Origin: Patescibacteria group bacterium
Lineage (GTDB): Bacteria; Patescibacteriota; Patescibacteriia; JBHPGJ01
Reading direction: 5' to 3'
DNA: 64,000 nucleotides
NCBI GenBank assembly: GCA_042570545.1
Contig: JBHPGJ010000003.1
Coordinates: 8,214-72,213 of the forward strand
The position numbers and the translations under genes were made by a program. Below are positions 1 through 20,378 of the stretch, in pieces (position 1 is the stretch's first letter; each line of letters begins with the position of its first letter). Below the pieces are notes generated by a model. That model worked only from the letters and a program-made list of their open reading frames with translations. It was not told the origin of the DNA and made no database searches.

Positions 1-1812
1 CTGGCTGACCAGGCTGACCATACATAGCTTGACCGATCTTTTGGACTACAGTATTTAATTCATTAGTCGCCGAATCAATAGCAGCTTTATCATCACTATC
101 TTTCACCTTTTTTACCGCTTCAACTTTTTCTTGAATTTCTTTCTTAGTTTTATCATCTACTTTACTGCCGGCATCTTTTAGGGCTTTCTCGGTAGAATAA
201 ATCAAAGTATCGGCATTATTACGAGCATCGATCAGCTCCCGTTTTTTCTTATCCTCAGTAGCGTGGGCTTCGGCATCCTTTTTCATATTATTAACCTCAT
301 CTTCTGACAGGGCCGTTGAGGCTTGTATGGTAATCGTCTGCTCCTTACCAGTACCTTTGTCTTTGGCTTTGACATTGAGGATACCATTGGCATCGATATC
401 AAAGGTAACTTCGATTTGCGGCACACCGCGCGGAGCGGGCGGGATCCCCTCAAGCATGAAACGGCCTAAAGTTTTGTTATCATTGGCCATTTCCCGCTCA
501 CCTTGGAGTACGTGAATCTCTACTGAGGGCTGGTTGTCACCCGCCGTGGAGAATACTTGCTGTTTAGAGGTTGGAATAGTAGTATTGCGCTCAATCAATG
601 GAGTACGCACCCCACCCAACGTTTCTAAGCCCAAGGTCAACGGAGTAACATCAAGTAGTAAGACATCTTTAACATCACCTTGCAACACACCAGCCTGTAC
701 GGCGGCGCCCAGGGCTACTACTTCATCGGGATTGATGCCAACGTGCGGTTTTTTGCCAAAGAATTCTTCAACTTTTTTCTGGACTAGCGGCATTCGTGTC
801 TGTCCGCCTACTAGTAATACTTCATTTACATCTGACGGCTTCATACCAGCATCGTCTAAGGCTTTTTTAACCGGGTCAAAGGTCTTGTCGATCATATCAC
901 CGACTAGTTCTTCTAGCTTAGCTCTAGTTAGGGTCAATTGCATGTGTTTGGGACCATCATCATCAGTGGTGATAAAGGGCTGATTGATTTCTGTTTCCGC
1001 AGTAGTTGATAATTCGTGCTTAGCCTTCTCGGCTGCTTCTTTCAAACGCTGGAGAGCTAGATTGTCTTTAGACAAATCAATACCTTCCTGCTTTTTATAT
1101 TCATCTACTATCCAATCGATCAATACTTTATCCAGATCATCTCCGCCCAGATGAGTATTACCGTTGGTCGCTTTAACTTCGACGGTGTCTTCAGATACTT
1201 CAAGAATTGAAATATCAAATGTGCCACCGCCTAAATCATAGACAGCAATCTTTTCATCTTTTTTCTTGTTAAAGCCATAGGCTAGAGCGGCGGCGGTTGG
1301 TTCATTAATAATGCGTTTAACTTCAAAACCAGCTATCTTTCCGGCGTCTTTGGTAGCTTGACGCTGCGAGTCGTCAAAATAAGCCGGCACGGTGATAACA
1401 GCTTCTTTAATCTCTTCACCAAGTTTTTCCTCGGCATCCGCTTTTAATTTCTGTAATATCATAGCCGAAATTTCTTGCGGTGTATACTCTTTATCCGACA
1501 TTTTTACTTTTACTCCCTCACCCGCTTGATTGATGGTAAAAGGGAAAAGCTTGATATCACGCTGGACTTCATCATCCGAGTGACGTCGGCCGATCAAACG
1601 CTTGAGGGAAAACAAAGTGTTTTCAGCATTTGTTACGGCTTGCCGTTTAGCTAACAATCCAGCTAGACGCTCCCCTTTCTTATTGACGGCTACTATTGAA
1701 GGAGTTGTACGATTACCCTCTTTATTTTCTAAGATCTTAGGCTCACCACCTTCGATTATAGCCATAGCCGAGTTAGTTGTGCCTAGATCTATTCCTAATA
1801 TCTTACCCATAT
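1..1812 (-). CDS. dnaK: Molecular chaperone DnaK (Hsp70). N-terminus is complete and the gene runs off the window start.
   Basis: Reverse-strand translation from ATG at 1812 gives [22 protein letters not shown]...[12 protein letters not shown]...[11 protein letters not shown]...[15 protein letters not shown], the canonical Hsp70 motifs. The ORF is absent from the provided track only because it has no stop within the window. Confidence 0.95.
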
Positions 1813-1847: not shown

Positions 1848-2180
1848 TTATTTAATAAAATTATCGATAGCGTTTGGTTCAGTCATTATCTCGTGGATAT
1901 CCATTACATCATCATCAGTAACATCATCAGCGCCGTCTAAGCCGATAATTTCTTCAGCCGATAAGTCGGTAATAACACCAGAAGCTTTAAGACCAAGCGG
2001 ATTCATCGACAAGACGGATACCACTCCTGAGCCGCAGTGCGAGCACTGGATAAATGTTAAGACTTGCTGATCTTTTTCGCCCAGTACTCTGACATTCTGA
2101 AAATTATAGGCAGTACTGCACACCGGACATCGTCCGTTTAATCGCATATTGAAACTGTTTGGATTTTGAAAGCGTTGCAT
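1848..2180 (-). CDS. Small zinc-ribbon protein (CxxC...CxxC) with an acidic C-terminal tail, immediately upstream of dnaK
   Basis: ORF track: 110 aa. Motifs CPVCS and CSHCG are about 25 aa apart, followed by the D/E-rich tail DGADDVTDDDVMDIHEIM. The true start may be the internal MRLNGR. Confidence 0.4.
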   Translation of the reverse strand: MQRFQNPNSFNMRLNGRCPVCSTAYNFQNVRVLGEKDQQVLTFIQCSHCGSGVVSVLSMNPLGLKASGVITDLSAEEIIGLDGADDVTDDDVMDIHEIMTEPNAIDNFIK

Positions 2181-2275
2181 ACGTTATTTAGTTTGACAAA
2201 ATGTTTTAATTATGGTTTACTACCGCTATAAATCGTTCCCGCGGTCTTTAACTTCTCACCGCGAGGGGGTGCACC

Positions 2276-2701
2276 TTGCATTTGAAGATCGCCAACATAT
2301 CAGTTGTCCGCCCCAAGATACGCGTGAAGCTTTTGCTTTGCACCATGGCCATGATCATCCCTGGCCTCGCATTTCTCTACTTCCTCCGGTCTTCTGACCA
2401 TGCTGCCACCTTCATCTTTCACGGGTATCTGATCTGCCTTGCGGGTTACGTTTGCCTTCGGGCTAAGAAAATCACCGCTGAAAACACGTTGGACATACCC
2501 TGGTACGAAAGTACCTATCTCGTAGGAGGTTACATTGCCCTAGTGTTACTGATCATCAACCTGTTGCTGTCTGCAGCCAATCACACTTTGGGTTTTGCCC
2601 TGCTGATCCTGCTGGCCGATGTTTTCTATCTGGCCATCACCATGTTCACCATTTCCTACGCGTTCTATGCGCGTGAAGATCACTTAGCACGGGATACTTA
2701 A
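2276..2701 (+). CDS. Small polytopic membrane protein (about 4 TM) in a GC-rich island. The alternative start at ATG 2345 (MAMIIPGLAF) is more plausible.
   Basis: ORF track: 141 aa. Hydrophobic segments IIPGLAFLYF, YLICLAGYVCL, GGYIALVLLIINLLL and LLILLADVFYLAITMF. GC content is clearly higher than the flanks. Confidence 0.45.
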   Translation: MHLKIANISVVRPKIRVKLLLCTMAMIIPGLAFLYFLRSSDHAATFIFHGYLICLAGYVCLRAKKITAENTLDIPWYESTYLVGGYIALVLLIINLLLSAANHTLGFALLILLADVFYLAITMFTISYAFYAREDHLARDT

Positions 2702-2730
2702 CCCAGCGTCACGATGCGTGCGGCGCCCCA

Positions 2731-2770
2731 GCCTTCATTATGCTTCGGCAGAAGAAGGCTTTATTTTATT
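2731..2770 (+). terminator. Rho-independent terminator after the GC-rich membrane-protein ORF
   Basis: Hairpin gccttc-attatgcttcggcaga-gaaggc followed by tttattttatt. Confidence 0.5.
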
Positions 2771-2790
2771 CGTAGAAAGTACATATTCCT

Positions 2791-2882
2791 GGGGCAGTCG
2801 CGCGGTTATGATTTTTAAACTGGCAATTTTAACCGTGGGACTGCCCCAAGTCTCAAATCATATAGAACAAGTTTGAGAGACT
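2791..2882. other. Two consecutive strong stem-loops between convergent genes, including a 17-bp imperfect stem
   Basis: The first pairs ggggcagtcgcgcggtt (2791-2807) with aaccgtgggactgcccc (2831-2847). The second pairs agtctcaaa (2849-2857) with tttgagagact (2872-2882). Neither is followed by a clean U-tract on either strand. Confidence 0.4.
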
Positions 2883-2888
2883 TGGGAG

Positions 2889-3299
2889 CTATTTATCAAT
2901 CTGGACAGAAATTTTCTTTGGCTTGGCTTCTTCCTTTTTGGGAATAGTGATTTTTAAAACACCATCGGTAAATTTGGCATCGGCCTTGTCGCCGGCAACG
3001 GCTTTGGGCAGCGATACGGCCCGGTAGAATGAACCAGAACGTATCTCTTTGCGGTAGTAGCTTTTCTCATCTACTTCTGATTTTTTCTCCGTTTTTCCGG
3101 AAAGTGTCAGAACGTTGTCTTCGATCTCGATATCAACATCTTCTGGCTTGATACCGGCTAGGGGCGTCTCGACAATGACATTATCATGATCTTCATAGAC
3201 ATCTATGGCCGGAGTAAACGATACCATTTTGTCGGGTACATCGAAGAATTCTTCCATATCGGGCCACATCATACGCGGTGACCTTTTAATAAGTGACAT
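2889..3299 (-). CDS. Small heat-shock protein, Hsp20/alpha-crystallin family
   Basis: 136 aa. Alpha-crystallin domain pattern (AIDVYEDHDNVIVETPLAGIKPEDVDIEIEDNVLTLSGKTE...SGSFYRAVSLP...DGVLKITIPK). Lies inside the hrcA-grpE heat-shock operon. Confidence 0.85.
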   Translation of the reverse strand: MSLIKRSPRMMWPDMEEFFDVPDKMVSFTPAIDVYEDHDNVIVETPLAGIKPEDVDIEIEDNVLTLSGKTEKKSEVDEKSYYRKEIRSGSFYRAVSLPKAVAGDKADAKFTDGVLKITIPKKEEAKPKKISVQIDK

Positions 3300-3300
3300 A

Positions 3301-3834
3301 TTATTTTACACCTCCTTCTTTATTATCTTCTCTTTTCTTTGATTCAGCAGCAACAATGACTTTGGCTGCTTGAATTATGTTTTCTTGCATTTGATAGCCC
3401 GGCTCAACTACTCCGATAATATCATTCGGTTTATGCTTATCTGACGGCCGGTGCTCGACGGCTTCATGAAACCATGGATTAAAATGCTTGGTTTCGACTT
3501 CTTTAATATTTAAATTACTTAACATATCGTCTAGCTGTTTCTTGATAGCAATAATACCCTTGACCCAGTCTTTTTCTTTCTCGTTTTCGGGGATATGTTC
3601 GGCAGCACGTTTAAAATTAGTATGCAGCGGTAGAAAGTCCAAGATCATGGCAACGGTAGCAAATTTAGCCAGTTCTTCTTTTTCTTTTTCTACCTGCTTC
3701 TTATAATTTAGATAATCAGCCTTGGCTCGCTGCCAGCCGGCCAGATATTCATCGGCTTTTTTCTTTAAAGCGGTAAATTCGTTATCACTGGTTGATTGGG
3801 TTTGAACTTCGTCTTCCTTTTTATCTTTGGTCAT
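3301..3834 (-). CDS. grpE: Nucleotide exchange factor GrpE
   Basis: 177 aa with a coiled-coil N-terminus and the GrpE C-terminal domain (DFLPLHTNFKRA...KGIIAIKKQLDDML). Positioned between hrcA and hsp20/dnaK. Confidence 0.8.
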   Translation of the reverse strand: MTKDKKEDEVQTQSTSDNEFTALKKKADEYLAGWQRAKADYLNYKKQVEKEKEELAKFATVAMILDFLPLHTNFKRAAEHIPENEKEKDWVKGIIAIKKQLDDMLSNLNIKEVETKHFNPWFHEAVEHRPSDKHKPNDIIGVVEPGYQMQENIIQAAKVIVAAESKKREDNKEGGVK

Positions 3835-3842
3835 TAATATTT

Positions 3843-4529
3843 TTATAATTTAGTTACTAATTGTTTGGAATAAATAAGTAGAGCGTGGTGATGCTGATAA
3901 TCCTGCCGGATGGGACCAAGAATGCCCATTAATCCGCGTTTGCTTTTGGTAGCTATAAAACCACATTGAACGCCAAAAGGATTTTCTTTACCAATAAATA
4001 CCTCTACCTGGTTATCTATCTTTTCAAACAGCTCTTCCACTACCTCGTCTAAATGATCTATAACATCAGACAGCTCATAAATTATTTCCTGTTGGGCAAA
4101 CTCTGGCTGACGGAATAGATTAGCAATGCCCGTGTAGAAATTATCATTAGGATTGAAGCTGAAGATCACCGTCTGCTTGGACATTATTGCCATTTCTTTG
4201 GCCATTTCTTTTATCGACTGATTGATCTCTGTCCCCCGTTTCAACGCGTCAGCTAATTGTTTTTCCATTGATTTTGCTAATGCCGCTTCCTTCATTCCAG
4301 AATCAAGATAGAATTTCCAGGCTTTTTCTGTCGGTAAACGGCCAGCCGAAGTATGCGGCTGATAAAGATAACCTTGTTTATCCAAATCCATCATTTCGTT
4401 GCGGATGGTAGCTGGAGAAACTTTAACGTTGTACTTATCAACAATCACAGATGAACCAACGGGCTGGGCTTCTCGGATATGTTCGCGAATAATAGTTGTT
4501 AAAAGCTCCTTTTTGCGGTCAGTTAGCAT
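3843..4529 (-). CDS. hrcA: Heat-inducible transcriptional repressor HrcA
   Basis: 228 aa. N-terminal winged helix (LLTTIIREHIREAQPVGSSVIV...SPATIRNEMMDLDKQGYL). A CIRCE operator lies immediately upstream, followed by grpE. Confidence 0.85.
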   Translation of the reverse strand: MLTDRKKELLTTIIREHIREAQPVGSSVIVDKYNVKVSPATIRNEMMDLDKQGYLYQPHTSAGRLPTEKAWKFYLDSGMKEAALAKSMEKQLADALKRGTEINQSIKEMAKEMAIMSKQTVIFSFNPNDNFYTGIANLFRQPEFAQQEIIYELSDVIDHLDEVVEELFEKIDNQVEVFIGKENPFGVQCGFIATKSKRGLMGILGPIRQDYQHHHALLIYSKQLVTKL

Positions 4530-4567
4530 ATTTTTGCCTATGTTTAATACAGCTTATGGCTACTAAT

Positions 4568-4594
4568 TAGCACTCTATCATTGAGAGTGCTAAT
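4568..4594. promoter_or_regulatory. CIRCE operator (HrcA binding site), perfect inverted repeat
   Basis: TTAGCACTC-tatcattga-GAGTGCTAA read directly: a 9-bp inverted repeat with a 9-bp spacer, matching the CIRCE consensus exactly. Confidence 0.9.
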
Positions 4595-4597
4595 GTA

Positions 4598-4626
4598 TTA
4601 TATATACCCATATATTTAGTGTCAAA
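4598..4626 (-). promoter_or_regulatory. Sigma70-type promoter for the hrcA operon, consensus -35 and -10
   Basis: On the minus strand: TTGACA-N17-TATAAT (plus-strand tgtcaa 4621-4626 and attata 4598-4603), immediately followed by CIRCE and about 70 nt before the hrcA start. Confidence 0.7.
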
Positions 4627-4751: not shown

Positions 4752-5663
4752 TTATCCAGCGGTTCCTTGTGATACAGCGTTGAGGACAAAGTCGATAAAT
4801 ATCCAACTTAAAACGACTAATACAATGCCAATGGTAGCATATAACAATGTACTTTTACCAACTCTTATTTTTTCCTGATTACCGCCAGATAAGATCCAGG
4901 TAAAGCCACCCCAGACGAACATAAAGGTTCCAAAAACTCCTAGCACGCCAAGAGCAATACGGATTATATTGGTCATTACGCACTTTATATCATCGCAACC
5001 TGCCGGATTAGGTATGGTGGCCGTCCTAGAAAAAAGATAAGCTGAGGTGCTGGCTTCAGCGGCAGTCATGGGCACGGACAAGCCCGGGACATTGACCCCA
5101 TCACAACCAGAATTAGACATAGTGGACAGGTGGGTATGACCATCGTGGATATCAATATATTTAGCTTTGCCGTGACAGGCACCGCTCGGAAAGATCAGTG
5201 CACGAATGGCAGTGTATAACGCCGGCTCCATAGTTGGATCGTTAGCATTAAAATCAACCGCTTCGGCACCGGTAGTTCCATACCGGCCGCCATAGTGACA
5301 TGAATAAATAGCATGACAGGCGTTCGTTTGACAGGCTACGTCCATCCCGCAATCTCTTATACCGCGGGTGTAGTTGAGAGTGTCAACTTGGGGATCTATC
5401 TGATAAGTATATATTTTATTTGGGTCAATTAATGTCGGGTCGGGAATATTGGTTTGTATACAACCAATAAGACTATTGAGATCGGCTGAATTTTGGGCTG
5501 GGAATGGTACCCCGTACTGCGCCGCCAGCAAACTAGGATCATTACAAACGGCTTGCGCCAGCTTATAGCTGTCACCTTCGGCAGCTATAGTTTCTGTTGG
5601 GACAACAACCAGTGTAATTACAGTTAAAACACCAAACAATATTATTAACTTGATTTTATTCAT
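4752..5663 (-). CDS. Secreted cysteine-rich protein with a C-terminal double-TM anchor. Possibly a VirB2/TrbC-like pilin topology with a large N-terminal domain.
   Basis: 303 aa. N-terminal signal peptide (MNKIKLIILFGVLTVITLVVVP). About 11 Cys and many His in the central domain. The C-terminus carries two hydrophobic helices (ALGVLGVFGTFMFVWGGFTWIL / TLLYATIGIVLVVLSWIFIDFVL) separated by a short basic loop. Confidence 0.55.
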   Translation of the reverse strand: MNKIKLIILFGVLTVITLVVVPTETIAAEGDSYKLAQAVCNDPSLLAAQYGVPFPAQNSADLNSLIGCIQTNIPDPTLIDPNKIYTYQIDPQVDTLNYTRGIRDCGMDVACQTNACHAIYSCHYGGRYGTTGAEAVDFNANDPTMEPALYTAIRALIFPSGACHGKAKYIDIHDGHTHLSTMSNSGCDGVNVPGLSVPMTAAEASTSAYLFSRTATIPNPAGCDDIKCVMTNIIRIALGVLGVFGTFMFVWGGFTWILSGGNQEKIRVGKSTLLYATIGIVLVVLSWIFIDFVLNAVSQGTAG

Positions 5664-5869
5664 ATTAACATTATATCATTTTTTGCTTACTTATTCAGCT
5701 AATAAATAATTGATACTTGCAATATCAAGAAAATTTTAATATTTATTATATTAATTAGAATAACGAGTTTAGTTCAGATACCATTGACAAAACTTAATTT
5801 TTGTAATAAATTCATTGGCTACATTTGAAGTTCGATAACAATTCACTCTTGCCTTAAAGGAGGCTAATT

Positions 5870-6628
5870 ATGAGCACCAGTCGAGTGATTGGTCTGGTGG
5901 TGGCGCTAGTTACGGCCGCTGCCAATTGGTTGGTTTTTTACTGGGTAGCCGTCAAATTTGGTAGCCCGGCGCCTGAGTTCATCGCTTGGATCGTTCTCCT
6001 GTCGGTCGTACTGCATGAGATCGGCCACCTGATCGTACTGGAGGCTAACGGTATCAAGACCTACCTGGTTTTTCTCGTCATCCTCGGTGGTGCCATACCT
6101 GATCCCAAACATAAAGACAAATACCTTGGCCTACCGCATCACACCCTGGCCCAGATATACTTGGCCGGTGTTACCCTGAATCTACTGATGGTGCTGGGCT
6201 CAGTAGTACTGTACTGGCTGGGTGATATCTCAGCTCGAGAGCTTGGCCAGATCACCAACCTCAGCGGCATCATGATCCTCTTCAACCTCTTGCCCATCTG
6301 GATCTTCGACGGTGGACGGTTTGCTAAGATATTCTTTGACAGCTCGCCGGAGGACAAGGATACGGGTTACGTGATCAAATTCACCGCCATCATCGGCGTC
6401 GTCTTCTTCCTTCTGACCCTACTGACGGAGTACAGCTTCATCTTCTCACTGCTGCTGCTCTTCTGGGGGTTGCATTTCCGAGCCAATCACGACGATCCTA
6501 TGGGCAGCCACAGTAAGCAGGCCATGTCTAAGAAACAGCTCAAAGGCTGGGCCTACTACTACGCCGCCCTGATGATACTGGCCGCCTACTTTATGGCCTC
6601 AACTGATAAGTGGTACATCAGCGGCTGA
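5870..6628 (+). CDS. M50 (site-2 protease/SpoIVFB-like) family integral-membrane zinc metalloprotease, encoded on a GC-rich island
   Basis: 252 aa. HEIGH zinc-binding motif in a TM helix (LHEIGHLIVLE) and a second motif NLLPIWIFDGG (the M50 LDG motif). About 6 TM segments. Strong SD aaaggaggctaattATG. GC about 55% against about 38% flanks. Confidence 0.7.
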   Translation: MSTSRVIGLVVALVTAAANWLVFYWVAVKFGSPAPEFIAWIVLLSVVLHEIGHLIVLEANGIKTYLVFLVILGGAIPDPKHKDKYLGLPHHTLAQIYLAGVTLNLLMVLGSVVLYWLGDISARELGQITNLSGIMILFNLLPIWIFDGGRFAKIFFDSSPEDKDTGYVIKFTAIIGVVFFLLTLLTEYSFIFSLLLLFWGLHFRANHDDPMGSHSKQAMSKKQLKGWAYYYAALMILAAYFMASTDKWYISG

Positions 6629-6653
6629 ATAAATTTTGAAAGGAGGACGTACC

Positions 6654-6920
6654 ATGCGTGCACAACCAAAATACAGCAAAGAAGAGTTTGCCGCTATGGA
6701 GCCTCATAAGCATGTCATCGTCGACAGTGGAAATCGGACTTGGATAGTACTGATGAAGTACTCGCAAGGTGACGAGCCACCGTCGTTTCTGATGCGCTGC
6801 ACCGGCCAGAGAGCCCAGCGAATCACCTTGGACGATCAGAAAGGACTGATTGACGATGACGGTCTGCCAATACTCGAACTCAATCATCACACCGCCCGCA
6901 TCAAAGAGGTCGAGGATTAA
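6654..6920 (+). CDS. Small soluble protein of unknown function on the same GC-rich island. Start placed at ATG 6654, not the track start 6636.
   Basis: SD aaaggagga lies 7 nt before ATG 6654 (MRAQPKYSKEEFAAMEPHKHVIVDSG...). The track start at 6636 lies inside the SD. A terminator follows. Confidence 0.5.
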   Translation: MRAQPKYSKEEFAAMEPHKHVIVDSGNRTWIVLMKYSQGDEPPSFLMRCTGQRAQRITLDDQKGLIDDDGLPILELNHHTARIKEVED

Positions 6921-6946
6921 ATCATGTAGCTTTGCACACCCAACCG

Positions 6947-6987
6947 GGAGCAGATCATATCAGGTCTGCTCCTACTTATTTTTATTT
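6947..6987 (+). terminator. Rho-independent terminator ending the GC-rich island
   Basis: ggagcaga-tcatatcagg-tctgctcc (8-bp stem) followed by tacttatttttatttat. Confidence 0.6.
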
Positions 6988-6996
6988 ATATTCCAC

Positions 6997-7704
6997 TTAT
7001 AAATCTAGCAAGGCGCTCCAGCCTTGTCTTGAACGGCTGACCTCAGCCGGAAAAGTACCTTTAAATTTTGACACTCCTTCATGTATCTCGTAGTTCTTCA
7101 TGGTAAAGCCGGGTATTTCATTCATCAGTTCATTGATCTTATCTTCGAAAAATTCCTCCGCCTGTTCTTGATAATTTTCGGGTACGGTAAATATGCCTAA
7201 TTTGGCCTGGTCAATCTCTAGATCAATTGTATTGGTTGCTACTTGATCGACCATCACTTTTACATAAACCGGAGCTTTGATATACCGATTCAACATAGTA
7301 GAAATTTCCAGTCCCCCTTCTATTTTTTTAACTTGAACATCAGAAAAGATCGGGTCATCGCCCTCAAAGCGCTGCAGCCAGGAAGTGATCTCTTCATTAT
7401 TAGTACTAGTATCAACTTCTAATGTGCCGCTGAACAAATCATCAGCCCCGCTGGCATAATCGGCCGGGTCGCCGACAATTTTCATTGGTATCTTTTTCTT
7501 AATACTGGCCAAATCTTCAGCGCTGGTTTCGACACCCAGATCTTTTGGCTTATTCATACCAAAGACGGCCGAGATGCCAGGTATAGAATAAAGGCCAGTA
7601 GCACCAATGCCTATTATCAATACTAACAACACCGCAACAATAATTATAATCGCCAACCTTAAGCGATGTCTTTTTTTGGGGACTTCTTTTTTCTCTTCTT
7701 CCAT
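6997..7704 (-). CDS. Membrane-anchored protein, tandem paralog 2 (Lys-rich N-terminus, single TM, conserved G-L-x-x-I-P-G motif)
   Basis: 235 aa. KKEVPKKRHRLRL, then a TM, then GLYSIPGISAVFGMNKPKDLGVE. Shares architecture and motifs with the adjacent upstream gene. Confidence 0.6.
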   Translation of the reverse strand: MEEEKKEVPKKRHRLRLAIIIIVAVLLVLIIGIGATGLYSIPGISAVFGMNKPKDLGVETSAEDLASIKKKIPMKIVGDPADYASGADDLFSGTLEVDTSTNNEEITSWLQRFEGDDPIFSDVQVKKIEGGLEISTMLNRYIKAPVYVKVMVDQVATNTIDLEIDQAKLGIFTVPENYQEQAEEFFEDKINELMNEIPGFTMKNYEIHEGVSKFKGTFPAEVSRSRQGWSALLDL

Positions 7705-11868: not shown

Positions 11869-12129
11869 TTACTTGCCTTTCTTAGGCTCGGTCAGAGCCT
11901 TAATTATTTTATCTACTACAGTTTCGTCATCATCAACTATCGCTTGAGCAATGCCTGGATCGTTTTTTATCACGTCAGACATTTCTTTGGCATAACGGTC
12001 GAGAAATTCTTCAGCCTTAATGCCGAGATCAGCAATCATTTTTTCCATAACCTGTGCTTCAACACCAATGTAATGCTCCCCACCGTCGCTGGTAACAATC
12101 TCCTCGGGTGTTGGTTTTTCATCTTCCAT
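11869..12129 (-). CDS. Small acidic hypothetical protein
   Basis: 86 aa, translationally coupled to the downstream gene. No recognisable motif. Confidence 0.4.
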   Translation of the reverse strand: MEDEKPTPEEIVTSDGGEHYIGVEAQVMEKMIADLGIKAEEFLDRYAKEMSDVIKNDPGIAQAIVDDDETVVDKIIKALTEPKKGK

Positions 12130-12208
12130 GTGTAAATTATAACTACTTATTGCTATTAATGCAAAATAAAGCTGCCACGTCTGGATGACATGGCAACTGT
12201 AATGATTG

Positions 12209-12784
12209 CTAACGGATCAGCCGGTGATGAGTAAACTTCTCGCGGTCGTTGCGCAGCTGAAGATACAGGTATTGGCCCGGTGGCAACCGGCCGGGATAGC
12301 TAACGACGTATCGTCCACTGCTCATATATTGACCATTCCATGACCAAGTGCGGTTACTGCCGACCACGCCAGCTAAGTAGAGTGATACCTGACCGGGTCG
12401 GTTGATGCTGAAATGGATCAATGATTGACCGGTGCTGATGTCGAAACTGACCGACATGGTGGTCTGTGGCGGACGATAGCGGTAACCTTGGTCGTTATAG
12501 ATCGTCCAGCGGAACGTTCCCCAGCTACGGTGGTGCCGAATCGGGCCTCGATGGTAACGGGGACGTAGTGGCCGGACTATATAGCGATAGCCCACTCGGC
12601 CATTACGATAGACCCGGGGTTGCTCATAGCAGTACTGATCCCGGAACGTGGTTTGCAGGCTGCGAAAGCCTACGCTTTGAGCGTTGGCATCATCGGCCAA
12701 GAAAATACTGGCCACTATGCCGATCAATATGGCAACCGTTCCACCGACTATGACTATTAGCAAAATGAGCGCGAATTTCTTCAC
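12209..12784 (-). CDS. Secreted or anchored Arg/Tyr-rich basic protein on a GC-rich island
   Basis: 191 aa with an N-terminal TM/signal. Repetitive YRxxR and RPxR pattern. GC about 53%. Confidence 0.45.
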   Translation of the reverse strand: MKKFALILLIVIVGGTVAILIGIVASIFLADDANAQSVGFRSLQTTFRDQYCYEQPRVYRNGRVGYRYIVRPLRPRYHRGPIRHHRSWGTFRWTIYNDQGYRYRPPQTTMSVSFDISTGQSLIHFSINRPGQVSLYLAGVVGSNRTWSWNGQYMSSGRYVVSYPGRLPPGQYLYLQLRNDREKFTHHRLIR

Positions 12785-12883
12785 GGTCTCCCTCCTTTAT
12801 GTGCTTAGAGCACGAAAACCGTGTTAACTGCTTATGGCTTACACTAAAACGCTGCTATTGTCAATGCTAGCAGTAGTTATTTA

Positions 12884-13270
12884 TTATTGATCATGATGGT
12901 CGTGTTCATCAGCCTCGGCTTCTTCTTTGGTTTGGTGAACAGTACCATCTTTATGTTCGGGTGGTGAGTAAATAGAATATAGTTTCAGTGGATTGTCAGT
13001 CGAGGTATTTATTATATTGTGATTAGCGCCGGCTGGAACTACTACGGCTGAGTCGTCTTTTATTTCTGTCACCTCACCATCTAAGACGGCCTGACCTTGA
13101 CCGGCTTCAATCCTGATAAATTGATCTAGTTGATGGATCTCTTCGCCAATTTCCTCTTTGGGCTTAAGACTCATCACCACCAGCTGGCTGTGCGAAGCGG
13201 TAAACAACACTTTCCTAAAATTTTCATTTTTAATTGTTTCTTCTTCAATGTTAGTGATATATCCGGACAT
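12884..13270 (-). CDS. Cupin-domain protein (paralog of 62047..62418)
   Basis: 128 aa. LVVMSLKPKEEIGEEIH...G.G...DGE matches the cupin two-motif pattern. About 40% identical to the 62047..62418 product (LVAMSLKPGEDTGEQTH). Confidence 0.65.
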   Translation of the reverse strand: MSGYITNIEEETIKNENFRKVLFTASHSQLVVMSLKPKEEIGEEIHQLDQFIRIEAGQGQAVLDGEVTEIKDDSAVVVPAGANHNIINTSTDNPLKLYSIYSPPEHKDGTVHQTKEEAEADEHDHHDQ

Positions 13271-13918: not shown

Positions 13919-14347
13919 ATGTCTGAGAAATGGACGCATTTTGTTGACAAGGATGAGAATGTCGGCACTGATGGCGGAGTAGCCGTTCTCGAAGTCAGTG
14001 ACGAAGTAAGGTCAGACCCCGAAGTTACCGGTATTTTCTTTTCTGGAGAACCCGAACACGGCGTGGAGCTGATCGAGGGCGACTGTGCTCCCGGCGATGT
14101 TGATGTCGACGAACTGATCACCCGACTGATGCCGCACGAGGACGAAATGCTGGAGCTGAACTACGGCGATCCGATTCAGCTCACCGGCACCCTGCTCGGT
14201 ATTGTACAATACGATCGTATCGGCCCGGATTGGTCGGCCATCGAGTACCCCGACAATCGCTTCCTACACCTGCGGCTGACCGATGGTACCGAGGCTTTAG
14301 TGCCAATCACGTTCATTGATCCTGACACCCTACGGGTAGTCATCTGA
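13919..14347 (+). CDS. Highly acidic small protein on a GC-rich island
   Basis: 142 aa. Strong SD aggaggtgggccATG. GC about 55%. A convergent terminator hairpin lies downstream (about 14370-14400). Confidence 0.5.
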   Translation: MSEKWTHFVDKDENVGTDGGVAVLEVSDEVRSDPEVTGIFFSGEPEHGVELIEGDCAPGDVDVDELITRLMPHEDEMLELNYGDPIQLTGTLLGIVQYDRIGPDWSAIEYPDNRFLHLRLTDGTEALVPITFIDPDTLRVVI

Positions 14348-19955: not shown

Positions 19956-20378
19956 TCAAAAACGGGAAGCTGTCTTCCCGTTTTTATCCTGTTGCTTCAG
20001 TCCATGTCGGATAGCCGTGATTATACCGGTGGCTAGCGATACTAACCAAATAATCAGGGCCTTATATCCATACTGTCGGATATAATTAGTACACTTGATT
20101 ATCCGCCATGAGCCGATATGAGAGGCAAAAATCAGATTATGCCCAGCCGCTAGCCCGACTGTTGTCATGGCCAACAAACCAAGCCACCCGACAAAGCCGT
20201 GAAAACTAGTTGGCCCGGCGGCCAACAGGCCCATCTTTATACTAGCCAGCCAGTCAAGGGCCAGGCCGATTACCAAAACCTGAAAATATCGGCGACGGTA
20301 CCAGTGACTAAGTCCGTAAAGACCGTAGCAATATAGCACCAGAACGATTATGACAAGAACGACTGCGTCGTACATCAC
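19956..20378 (-). CDS. Polytopic membrane protein, unknown function
   Basis: 140 aa with about 4 TM. Confidence 0.45.
   Translation of the reverse strand: MMYDAVVLVIIVLVLYCYGLYGLSHWYRRRYFQVLVIGLALDWLASIKMGLLAAGPTSFHGFVGWLGLLAMTTVGLAAGHNLIFASHIGSWRIIKCTNYIRQYGYKALIIWLVSLATGIITAIRHGLKQQDKNGKTASRF

Follow-up and report, generated by a model that had tools for sequence, protein, structure and literature searches.

An ordinary CIRCE heat-shock operon of a Patescibacteria bacterium with an old antisense passenger gene between hsp20 and dnaK: a candidate noncontiguous operon

Stem-loops located between cistrons stabilize the upstream part of a polycistronic mRNA, as exemplified by the REP elements of malEFG and by the puf operon. 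In Bacillus, the mRNA of the dnaK operon is processed in segments after transcription (Homuth 1999, cited in PMC3446304). A further type of arrangement, the noncontiguous operon, is represented by menE-menC-MW1733-ytkD-MW1731 of Staphylococcus aureus (Saenz-Lahoya 2019, as reviewed in PMC7154746; atlas, PMC11034616), and according to the atlas such operons are not computationally predictable.

The locus described here lies in a 64,000-nt stretch of DNA (hereafter the window) from a Patescibacteria metagenome-assembled genome (GCA_042570545.1, contig JBHPGJ010000003.1, positions 8,214-72,213, forward strand), and it shares features with each of these systems. As in noncontiguous operons, a coding gene on the opposite strand (2276-2701) is placed among co-directional, functionally linked genes, the whole set is preceded by a single evident promoter, and the embedded gene has a promoter of its own. 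Unlike the S. aureus example, the operon is a CIRCE/HrcA heat-shock operon of Patescibacteria, a strong one-way terminator closes the embedded gene, two large hairpins accompany it on the operon side, and co-transcription and reciprocal repression, whether by colliding polymerases or by RNase III cutting the duplex, are putative. With the hrcA-grpE-dnaK-dnaJ operons of Bacillota it shares a consensus promoter with a perfect CIRCE, hrcA, grpE, and dnaK at the end, as well as structured intercistronic RNA, which could give segments of the transcript different stabilities. It differs from them in having hsp20 and a zinc-ribbon gene between grpE and dnaK, an embedded antisense gene, and stem-loops that follow hsp20 rather than lying between hrcA and grpE. 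Finally, like the stem-loops of malEFG and puf, a stable, GC-rich hairpin without a U-tract stands directly after a stop codon, and its position is conserved and its sequence variable; unlike the malEFG REP, it is not a dispersed repeat, it is absent from two relatives (L001 and L002), and its role as a stabilizer is putative.

Layout of the operon and of the embedded cassette

The operon is read on the minus strand in the order promoter and CIRCE, hrcA, grpE, hsp20, a 708-bp gap (2888 to 2181), zinc-ribbon ORF and dnaK. The features of the locus are as follows.

4597-4625, minus strand: operon promoter, TTGACA-17-TATAAT, 12/12 consensus matches
4567-4593, no strand assigned: CIRCE, TTAGCACTC-N9-GAGTGCTAA, 0 mismatches, just downstream of the operon promoter
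3843-4529, minus strand: hrcA (PF01628)
3301-3834, minus strand: grpE (PF01025)
2889-3299, minus strand: hsp20, alpha-crystallin family (PF00011), with a strong AGGAGG ribosome-binding site
2845-2886, minus strand: hairpin 1 (CCCAAGTCTC / GAGACTTGGG), 10-bp perfect stem, -17.5 kcal/mol, z -4.9
2788-2850, minus strand: hairpin 2; its segment 2790-2848 has about 22 pairs, -36.3 kcal/mol, z -7.3, with 0 of 200 shuffles as good
2730-2771, plus strand: intrinsic terminator of the cassette, stem 2730-2760 and T-run 2761-2771, -13.7 kcal/mol, z -2.6
2276-2701, plus strand: small membrane-protein gene, 141 aa from TTG 2276 (139 aa from TTG 2282 in the annotation of ACFL04_00930)
2263-2269, plus strand: ribosome-binding site of the membrane-protein gene, GAGGGGG (AAGGAG equivalent in relatives)
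2193-2221, plus strand: cassette promoter, TTGACA (2193-2198), 17-nt spacer ending in TGG, TTTACT (2216-2221), abutting the zinc-ribbon ATG
1848-2180, minus strand: zinc-ribbon ORF, CPVC...CSHC and an acidic tail, without a ribosome-binding site
2-1810, minus strand: dnaK, truncated at the window edge, 85% identity to the DnaK (Hsp70) of L001

The zinc-ribbon and membrane-protein ORFs correspond to NCBI ACFL04_00925 and ACFL04_00930, respectively, on a 91-kb contig. A perfect inverted repeat next to the promoter, and hrcA together with grpE and dnaK, place the locus among CIRCE/HrcA operons, and a perfect promoter-adjacent CIRCE was also present in relatives and outgroups. When 15 loci were searched, one CIRCE was found in 13 of the 15 sequences; L015 had two, both just upstream of hrcA, and the sequence of L008 is too short to include the element. 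In the 64 kb of the window there was no second CIRCE within 3 mismatches, and the operon strand held no consensus promoter from 4596 to 1700 (sigma-70 consensus, from which Patescibacteria promoters may differ). Directly upstream of the CIRCE promoter (4752-5663, minus strand) lies a gene for a 303-aa protein that has a type IV secretion pilin domain (PF18895) at its C-terminus.

Within the gap, the segment of about 2193-2771 on the plus strand forms a cassette, in which a promoter of the sigma-70 type and a ribosome-binding site precede a fast-evolving gene for a four-helix membrane protein, and a one-way intrinsic terminator follows it. The -35 box and the spacing of its promoter are invariant in the four relatives that carry a counterpart (L002, L003, L008 and L089). 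At its other end, the terminator stem is followed by TTTATTTTATT, with equivalents of 7-8 U in L002 and L003; because the operon strand reads 2730-2771 as an A-run and then a hairpin, this terminator works in one direction, and in the window, L002 and L003 the U-run occurs on the cassette strand alone. The encoded protein has four predicted helices (AlphaFold model of low confidence, pLDDT 57.7) and matched nothing in Pfam, NCBIfam or PHROGs above cut-offs. A word search of 5.8 billion sequences and a HMMER search of 1.8 billion sequences returned only the protein itself, and a profile built from the membrane proteins of the relatives matched only those relatives; on these searches, the family appears confined to this one locus in related genomes. 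An RNA thermometer in the 5' leaders of the gene was considered and rejected, the leaders folding no better than shuffles (z -1.5 to +1.0) with no common structure.

The membrane-protein ORF is also unusual in composition, with GC1/2/3 of.49/.36/.63, compared with GC3 values of 0.36-0.47 in its neighbours and 0.365 as the median of the window. The GC3 of its orthologues is likewise raised (0.72, 0.74 and 0.70, and about 0.69 over the 26 codons available from the low-GC L089), indicating that the anomaly, which persists even where the host has about 40% GC, is a property of the gene and not a mark of recent arrival. Other GC3-rich ORFs (0.52-0.70; window GC3 0.38) occur at 5870-6628, 6636-6920 and 13919-14347 on the plus strand and at 12209-12784 and 19956-20378 on the minus strand; apart from an M50-like match at 5870-6628 they have no Pfam match. 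A number of them are hydrophobic, a number are encoded on the minority strand, and they are possibly accessory genes composed like the membrane-protein gene.

An earlier note on this DNA had described a heat-shock operon interrupted by a four-TM mini-protein on the opposite strand, a terminator belonging to the latter at 2731-2770, two further stem-loops at 2791-2847 and 2849-2882, and a GC content of about 55%. These features are largely real: an opposite-strand ORF (2276 or 2282 to 2701, with four long helices modelled) does separate hsp20 from the zinc-ribbon ORF and dnaK, the terminator was recovered as a stem with a T-run, the fold of the larger hairpin was confirmed, and the lack of a CIRCE or obvious promoter in front of dnaK agrees with the single CIRCE and the promoter scan above. 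The GC content was too high and the last hairpin misplaced, since 2200-2885 measured 48.4% GC (window mean 40.9%; 97.8th percentile, with two GC-richer stretches at 5791-7056 and 11941-12976) and the hairpin was found at 2845-2886.

The hairpins downstream of hsp20

Hairpin 1 begins 2 nt past the hsp20 stop codon, has no U-tract and shares CCCA with hairpin 2. No other 66-nt fold of the window is as stable as hairpin 2 (window mean -10.0, sd 4.6, next best -27.7). Read on the operon strand, neither 2845-2886 nor 2788-2850 has the form of an intrinsic terminator: AGGAAUAUGUACUUUCUACG follows without a U-run, and both were absent from our terminator scan. Canonical stem-plus-U terminators do occur in this genome.

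Related structures are found at the same position in relatives. The base of hairpin 2, CTTGGGG...CCCCAGG, is kept in L003 and L007 and its apical part is variable; overall, the post-hsp20 hairpins of these two loci have the same CCCAAG / CTTGGGGC / CCCCAGG bases with unrelated apices, and L007 has them without an antisense gene. The motif CCCAAG / CTTGGGGC / CCCCAGG occurs once in the 64 kb and, within 861 kb of related loci, at the orthologous site alone. In four outgroup loci (L009, L054, L014 and L012) a very stable hairpin stands at or just after the hsp20 stop (z -4.7 to -6.7), again with no U-run, followed by an A-rich leader and then by the succeeding gene (dnaK in the case of L054 and L014). 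The hairpins are missing in L001 and L002 and are thus dispensable, and every combination of hairpins and ORF, each present or absent, is represented among the loci.

Two observations bear on the strand from which the hairpins are read. The basal U.G wobble falls on the operon strand in all three copies (window, L003 and L007), and the L003 hairpin folds with z -5.3 on the operon strand compared with -1.3 on the other; this evidence mildly favours the operon RNA as the carrier. Covariation is underpowered, with three distinct sequences only, whose apices are unalignable. Operons of this kind repeatedly have a stable hairpin after hsp20, and the comparison indicates that the hairpins of the window are the operon's own module, older than the insertion of the cassette. 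Judged by analogy, their most likely role in the operon mRNA is that of a stabilizer of a 3' end or segment or of a weak attenuator, and they do not look like a full terminator. Two stable hairpins were also seen between the zinc-ribbon gene and dnaK of L008 (916-1013), one of which ends in GGGTTGGGGC and resembles the post-hsp20 hairpins.

Origin and age of the cassette

Six homologues of the zinc-ribbon protein (63-72% identity) define the close relatives of this locus, all of whose contigs carry the same operon where they are long enough, and no further relatives of the protein were found in GTDB genomes and JGI metagenomes. The protein belongs to no Pfam family. Its gene is located just upstream of the gene in the dnaK position in every relative and follows hsp20 wherever the contig reaches, and a homologue of about 30% identity is present in the outgroup locus L009 (6918-7265); the protein may be a lineage-specific partner of DnaK. 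On the short contig of L089, the gene past the zinc-ribbon ORF (541-687) begins MKKNRDIDSGTTNLS..., unlike a normal DnaK N-terminus. The junction between hsp20 and the zinc-ribbon gene takes the following forms in the relatives.

L001: 9-bp gap, without an insert
L007: 155-bp gap, without an ORF
L002, L003-L006 and L008: 138-aa opposite-strand ORF in the same slot
L089: N-terminus of such an ORF, MNEVAKSNCNRIPRIRILLLFTAFVI, compared with ...NISVVRPKIRVKLLLCTMAMII in the window

The HrcA and zinc-ribbon proteins of the cassette-bearing relatives (L002, L003, L008 and L089) are about 57-66% identical to those of the window. The membrane proteins of L002, L003 and L008 share 45-48% pairwise identity, and the window protein matches those of the relatives weakly and collinearly (17-20% identity by MAFFT; BLASTP E 0.02-0.03; hhalign against the high-GC relatives, E 0.0012 and probability 19%). 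At the DNA level the cassettes have in common a promoter block that abuts the zinc-ribbon ATG (TTGACA-17(TGn)-TTAAGT / TTAAAT / TTTACT), and they also align at the ribosome-binding site, at a block encoding the first transmembrane helix (about 70% identity) and at the A-run flank of the terminator. These shared DNA features, together with the collinear protein match, indicate that the cassette ORFs are orthologues of one fast-evolving gene, and the locus thus defines a small membrane-protein family tied to one chromosomal slot.

Outgroup loci were recovered with an HrcA profile. Since the direct neighbour of hsp20 is a distant zinc-ribbon gene, followed by dnaK, in L009 and dnaK itself in L011, L013, L014 and L054, with no antisense gene at the hsp20/dnaK junction of any of these five loci, the cassette is a derived insertion. 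Other small, unrelated ORFs were seen at this junction in the outgroups L010 (3215-4294) and L012 (6885-7220), and the junction seems to accept passenger genes repeatedly. A 13-nt inverted repeat (2228-2240/2884-2896) was considered as the mark of a mobile element; it overlaps the hsp20 stop, is 1 of 24 short matches and was judged to be due to chance.

Trees gave a firm high-GC clade of L007, L002, L003 and L008 and a looser grouping of the window, L001 and L089. Both groups include carriers of the cassette, which is absent from L001 and from L007. That L007 retains both hairpins, as well as AATAAAGC repeats matching the terminator boundary of the window (GAATAAAATAAAGCC), suggests a deletion in that locus. 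The simplest reading of these sequences is one old gain of the cassette followed by one or two losses, with parsimony between gain and loss indecisive because the branching of the window, L001 and L089 is weakly supported; the cassette may also have spread among the relatives by recombination.

The earlier note had taken the three stem-loops and the gene as one insertion and had held that conservation of the arrangement across a lineage would speak against its being recent. Insertion is upheld in the evolutionary sense, given the contiguous outgroups, and the three stem-loops are not one unit, since one is the terminator of the cassette and the other two, present in the insert-free L007, belong to the operon. 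The presence of the cassette in four relatives and its absence from two answers the point about conservation in part. Recent acquisition of a GC-rich island by horizontal transfer, in which foreign DNA landed lately and broke the operon, would explain the GC3 of the ORF and the GC rank of 2200-2885, the lack of relatives of the membrane protein elsewhere, and the absence of the gene from L001, which has the most similar zinc-ribbon protein. However, the same cassette stands at the same site in L002, L003, L008 and L089, its GC3 is high in every orthologue including that of the low-GC L089, no mobility genes, integrase, tRNA or flanking direct repeats were found, and phage and plasmid collections gave zero matches. 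Recency is thus largely refuted by synteny, and we regard it as highly improbable. Equally implausible, in our judgment, are other identities for the two operon-side hairpins, namely a riboswitch or RNA thermometer acting on the genes downstream, a gene for a small RNA, or a dispersed palindromic repeat of the REP or MITE type. The heat-shock context, the strong structure on both strands and the similar G/C-tract hairpins at another junction in L008, between the zinc-ribbon gene and dnaK, are compatible with such identities, but a fold of -17 to -36 kcal/mol is too stable to melt at heat shock and the next start codon is more than 600 nt away, which argues against a thermometer. Rfam (gathering threshold; E<=5) gave only miRNA-like matches to generic hairpins, well under the threshold, no promoter or terminator frames the hairpins, and the single copy in the window, with none off the orthologous site in the related loci, is at odds with the many copies of a REP or MITE family.

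Transcription of dnaK

Given a sole promoter that is linked to CIRCE, no conserved internal promoter in any of the 15 loci, a cassette terminator that works one way and a zinc-ribbon gene without a ribosome-binding site, read-through is the likeliest route to dnaK. We propose that transcription starting at the CIRCE promoter would read through an antisense spacer of about 700 nt into the zinc-ribbon gene and dnaK, and that the operon transcript and the membrane-protein mRNA would overlap and may interfere mutually. On balance, the sequence comparisons make it somewhat probable that two independent modules meet at the hsp20/dnaK junction and that dnaK is expressed by read-through in the manner of a noncontiguous operon. 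The spacer RNA on the operon strand has a G/C ratio of 1.03-1.20 (G at least equal to C), as do the neighbouring genes, which fits an anti-Rho idea and is non-discriminating. A leaderless or divergent promoter for the zinc-ribbon gene was considered and set aside, as no conserved candidate was found and the conserved block upstream of the ATG is the promoter of the opposite strand.

Even with no U-tract behind it, a hairpin of -36 kcal/mol could cause transcription to pause or end. DnaK is normally required in larger amounts than HrcA or GrpE, and this high requirement is a poor fit with expression by read-through alone over two hairpins and an antisense gene. A serious rival, which we consider possible and on the unlikely side, is that the operon is split: the hairpins would end the CIRCE-controlled hrcA-grpE-hsp20 transcript, and the zinc-ribbon gene and dnaK would be expressed, uncoupled from HrcA, from an unrecognised promoter located antisense to the membrane-protein gene, within the 95-bp divergent region or in the zinc-ribbon gene itself. 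The extreme stability of hairpin 2 is in keeping with such a split, and chaperone stoichiometry favours a dedicated promoter for dnaK. The operon strand does have weak promoter-like sites, at 2580, 2379 and 2130, the last of which (a weak -35-like hexamer, 16 nt, and TATAAT) recurs in four relatives. However, the 2130 site lies within the coding sequence of the zinc-ribbon gene; of six loci scanned, five have its TATAAT and L001 has CAGAAT in that place, and TATAAT recurs because conserved Tyr-Asn codons of the zinc-ribbon gene lie there; we therefore rejected it as an internal promoter, keeping as a minor possibility that it could drive a dnaK-only transcript. Moreover, no operon-strand promoter common to the relatives was found in the gap, and the hairpins lack the U-tract that terminators of this genome use. 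In the outgroups, finally, the hairpins stand 30-45 nt before dnaK with no second CIRCE or promoter match, indicating that read-through is needed there.

If read-through does hold, an embedded antisense gene would influence the main chaperone gene of an uncultured bacterium with a reduced genome, and the idea of the noncontiguous operon would extend to the dnaK operon and to Patescibacteria. Failing that, the locus would be a normal CIRCE operon whose antisense passenger gene is specific to the lineage. A doubtful but specific elaboration is a switch, in which strong transcription from the CIRCE promoter with HrcA inactivated would cross the antisense of the membrane-protein gene and silence it and, in unstressed cells, the promoter of that gene, whose -35 box is perfect, would throttle read-through into dnaK, the C-rich third codon positions, found in hosts of low and of high GC, then reflecting selection on a 600-nt untranslated antisense spacer. 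Such a switch, if true, would be the first described in a dnaK operon and in Patescibacteria.

Starts of the zinc-ribbon gene and of dnaK without ribosome-binding sites were seen in the window (2181-2192), L007 (1960-1999), L008 (965-1013) and L003 (6352-6387). Several of them have ACTTACTAC-type repeats or ACCTATG in front, and together these features suggest that translation of the two genes may be initiated in a different way.
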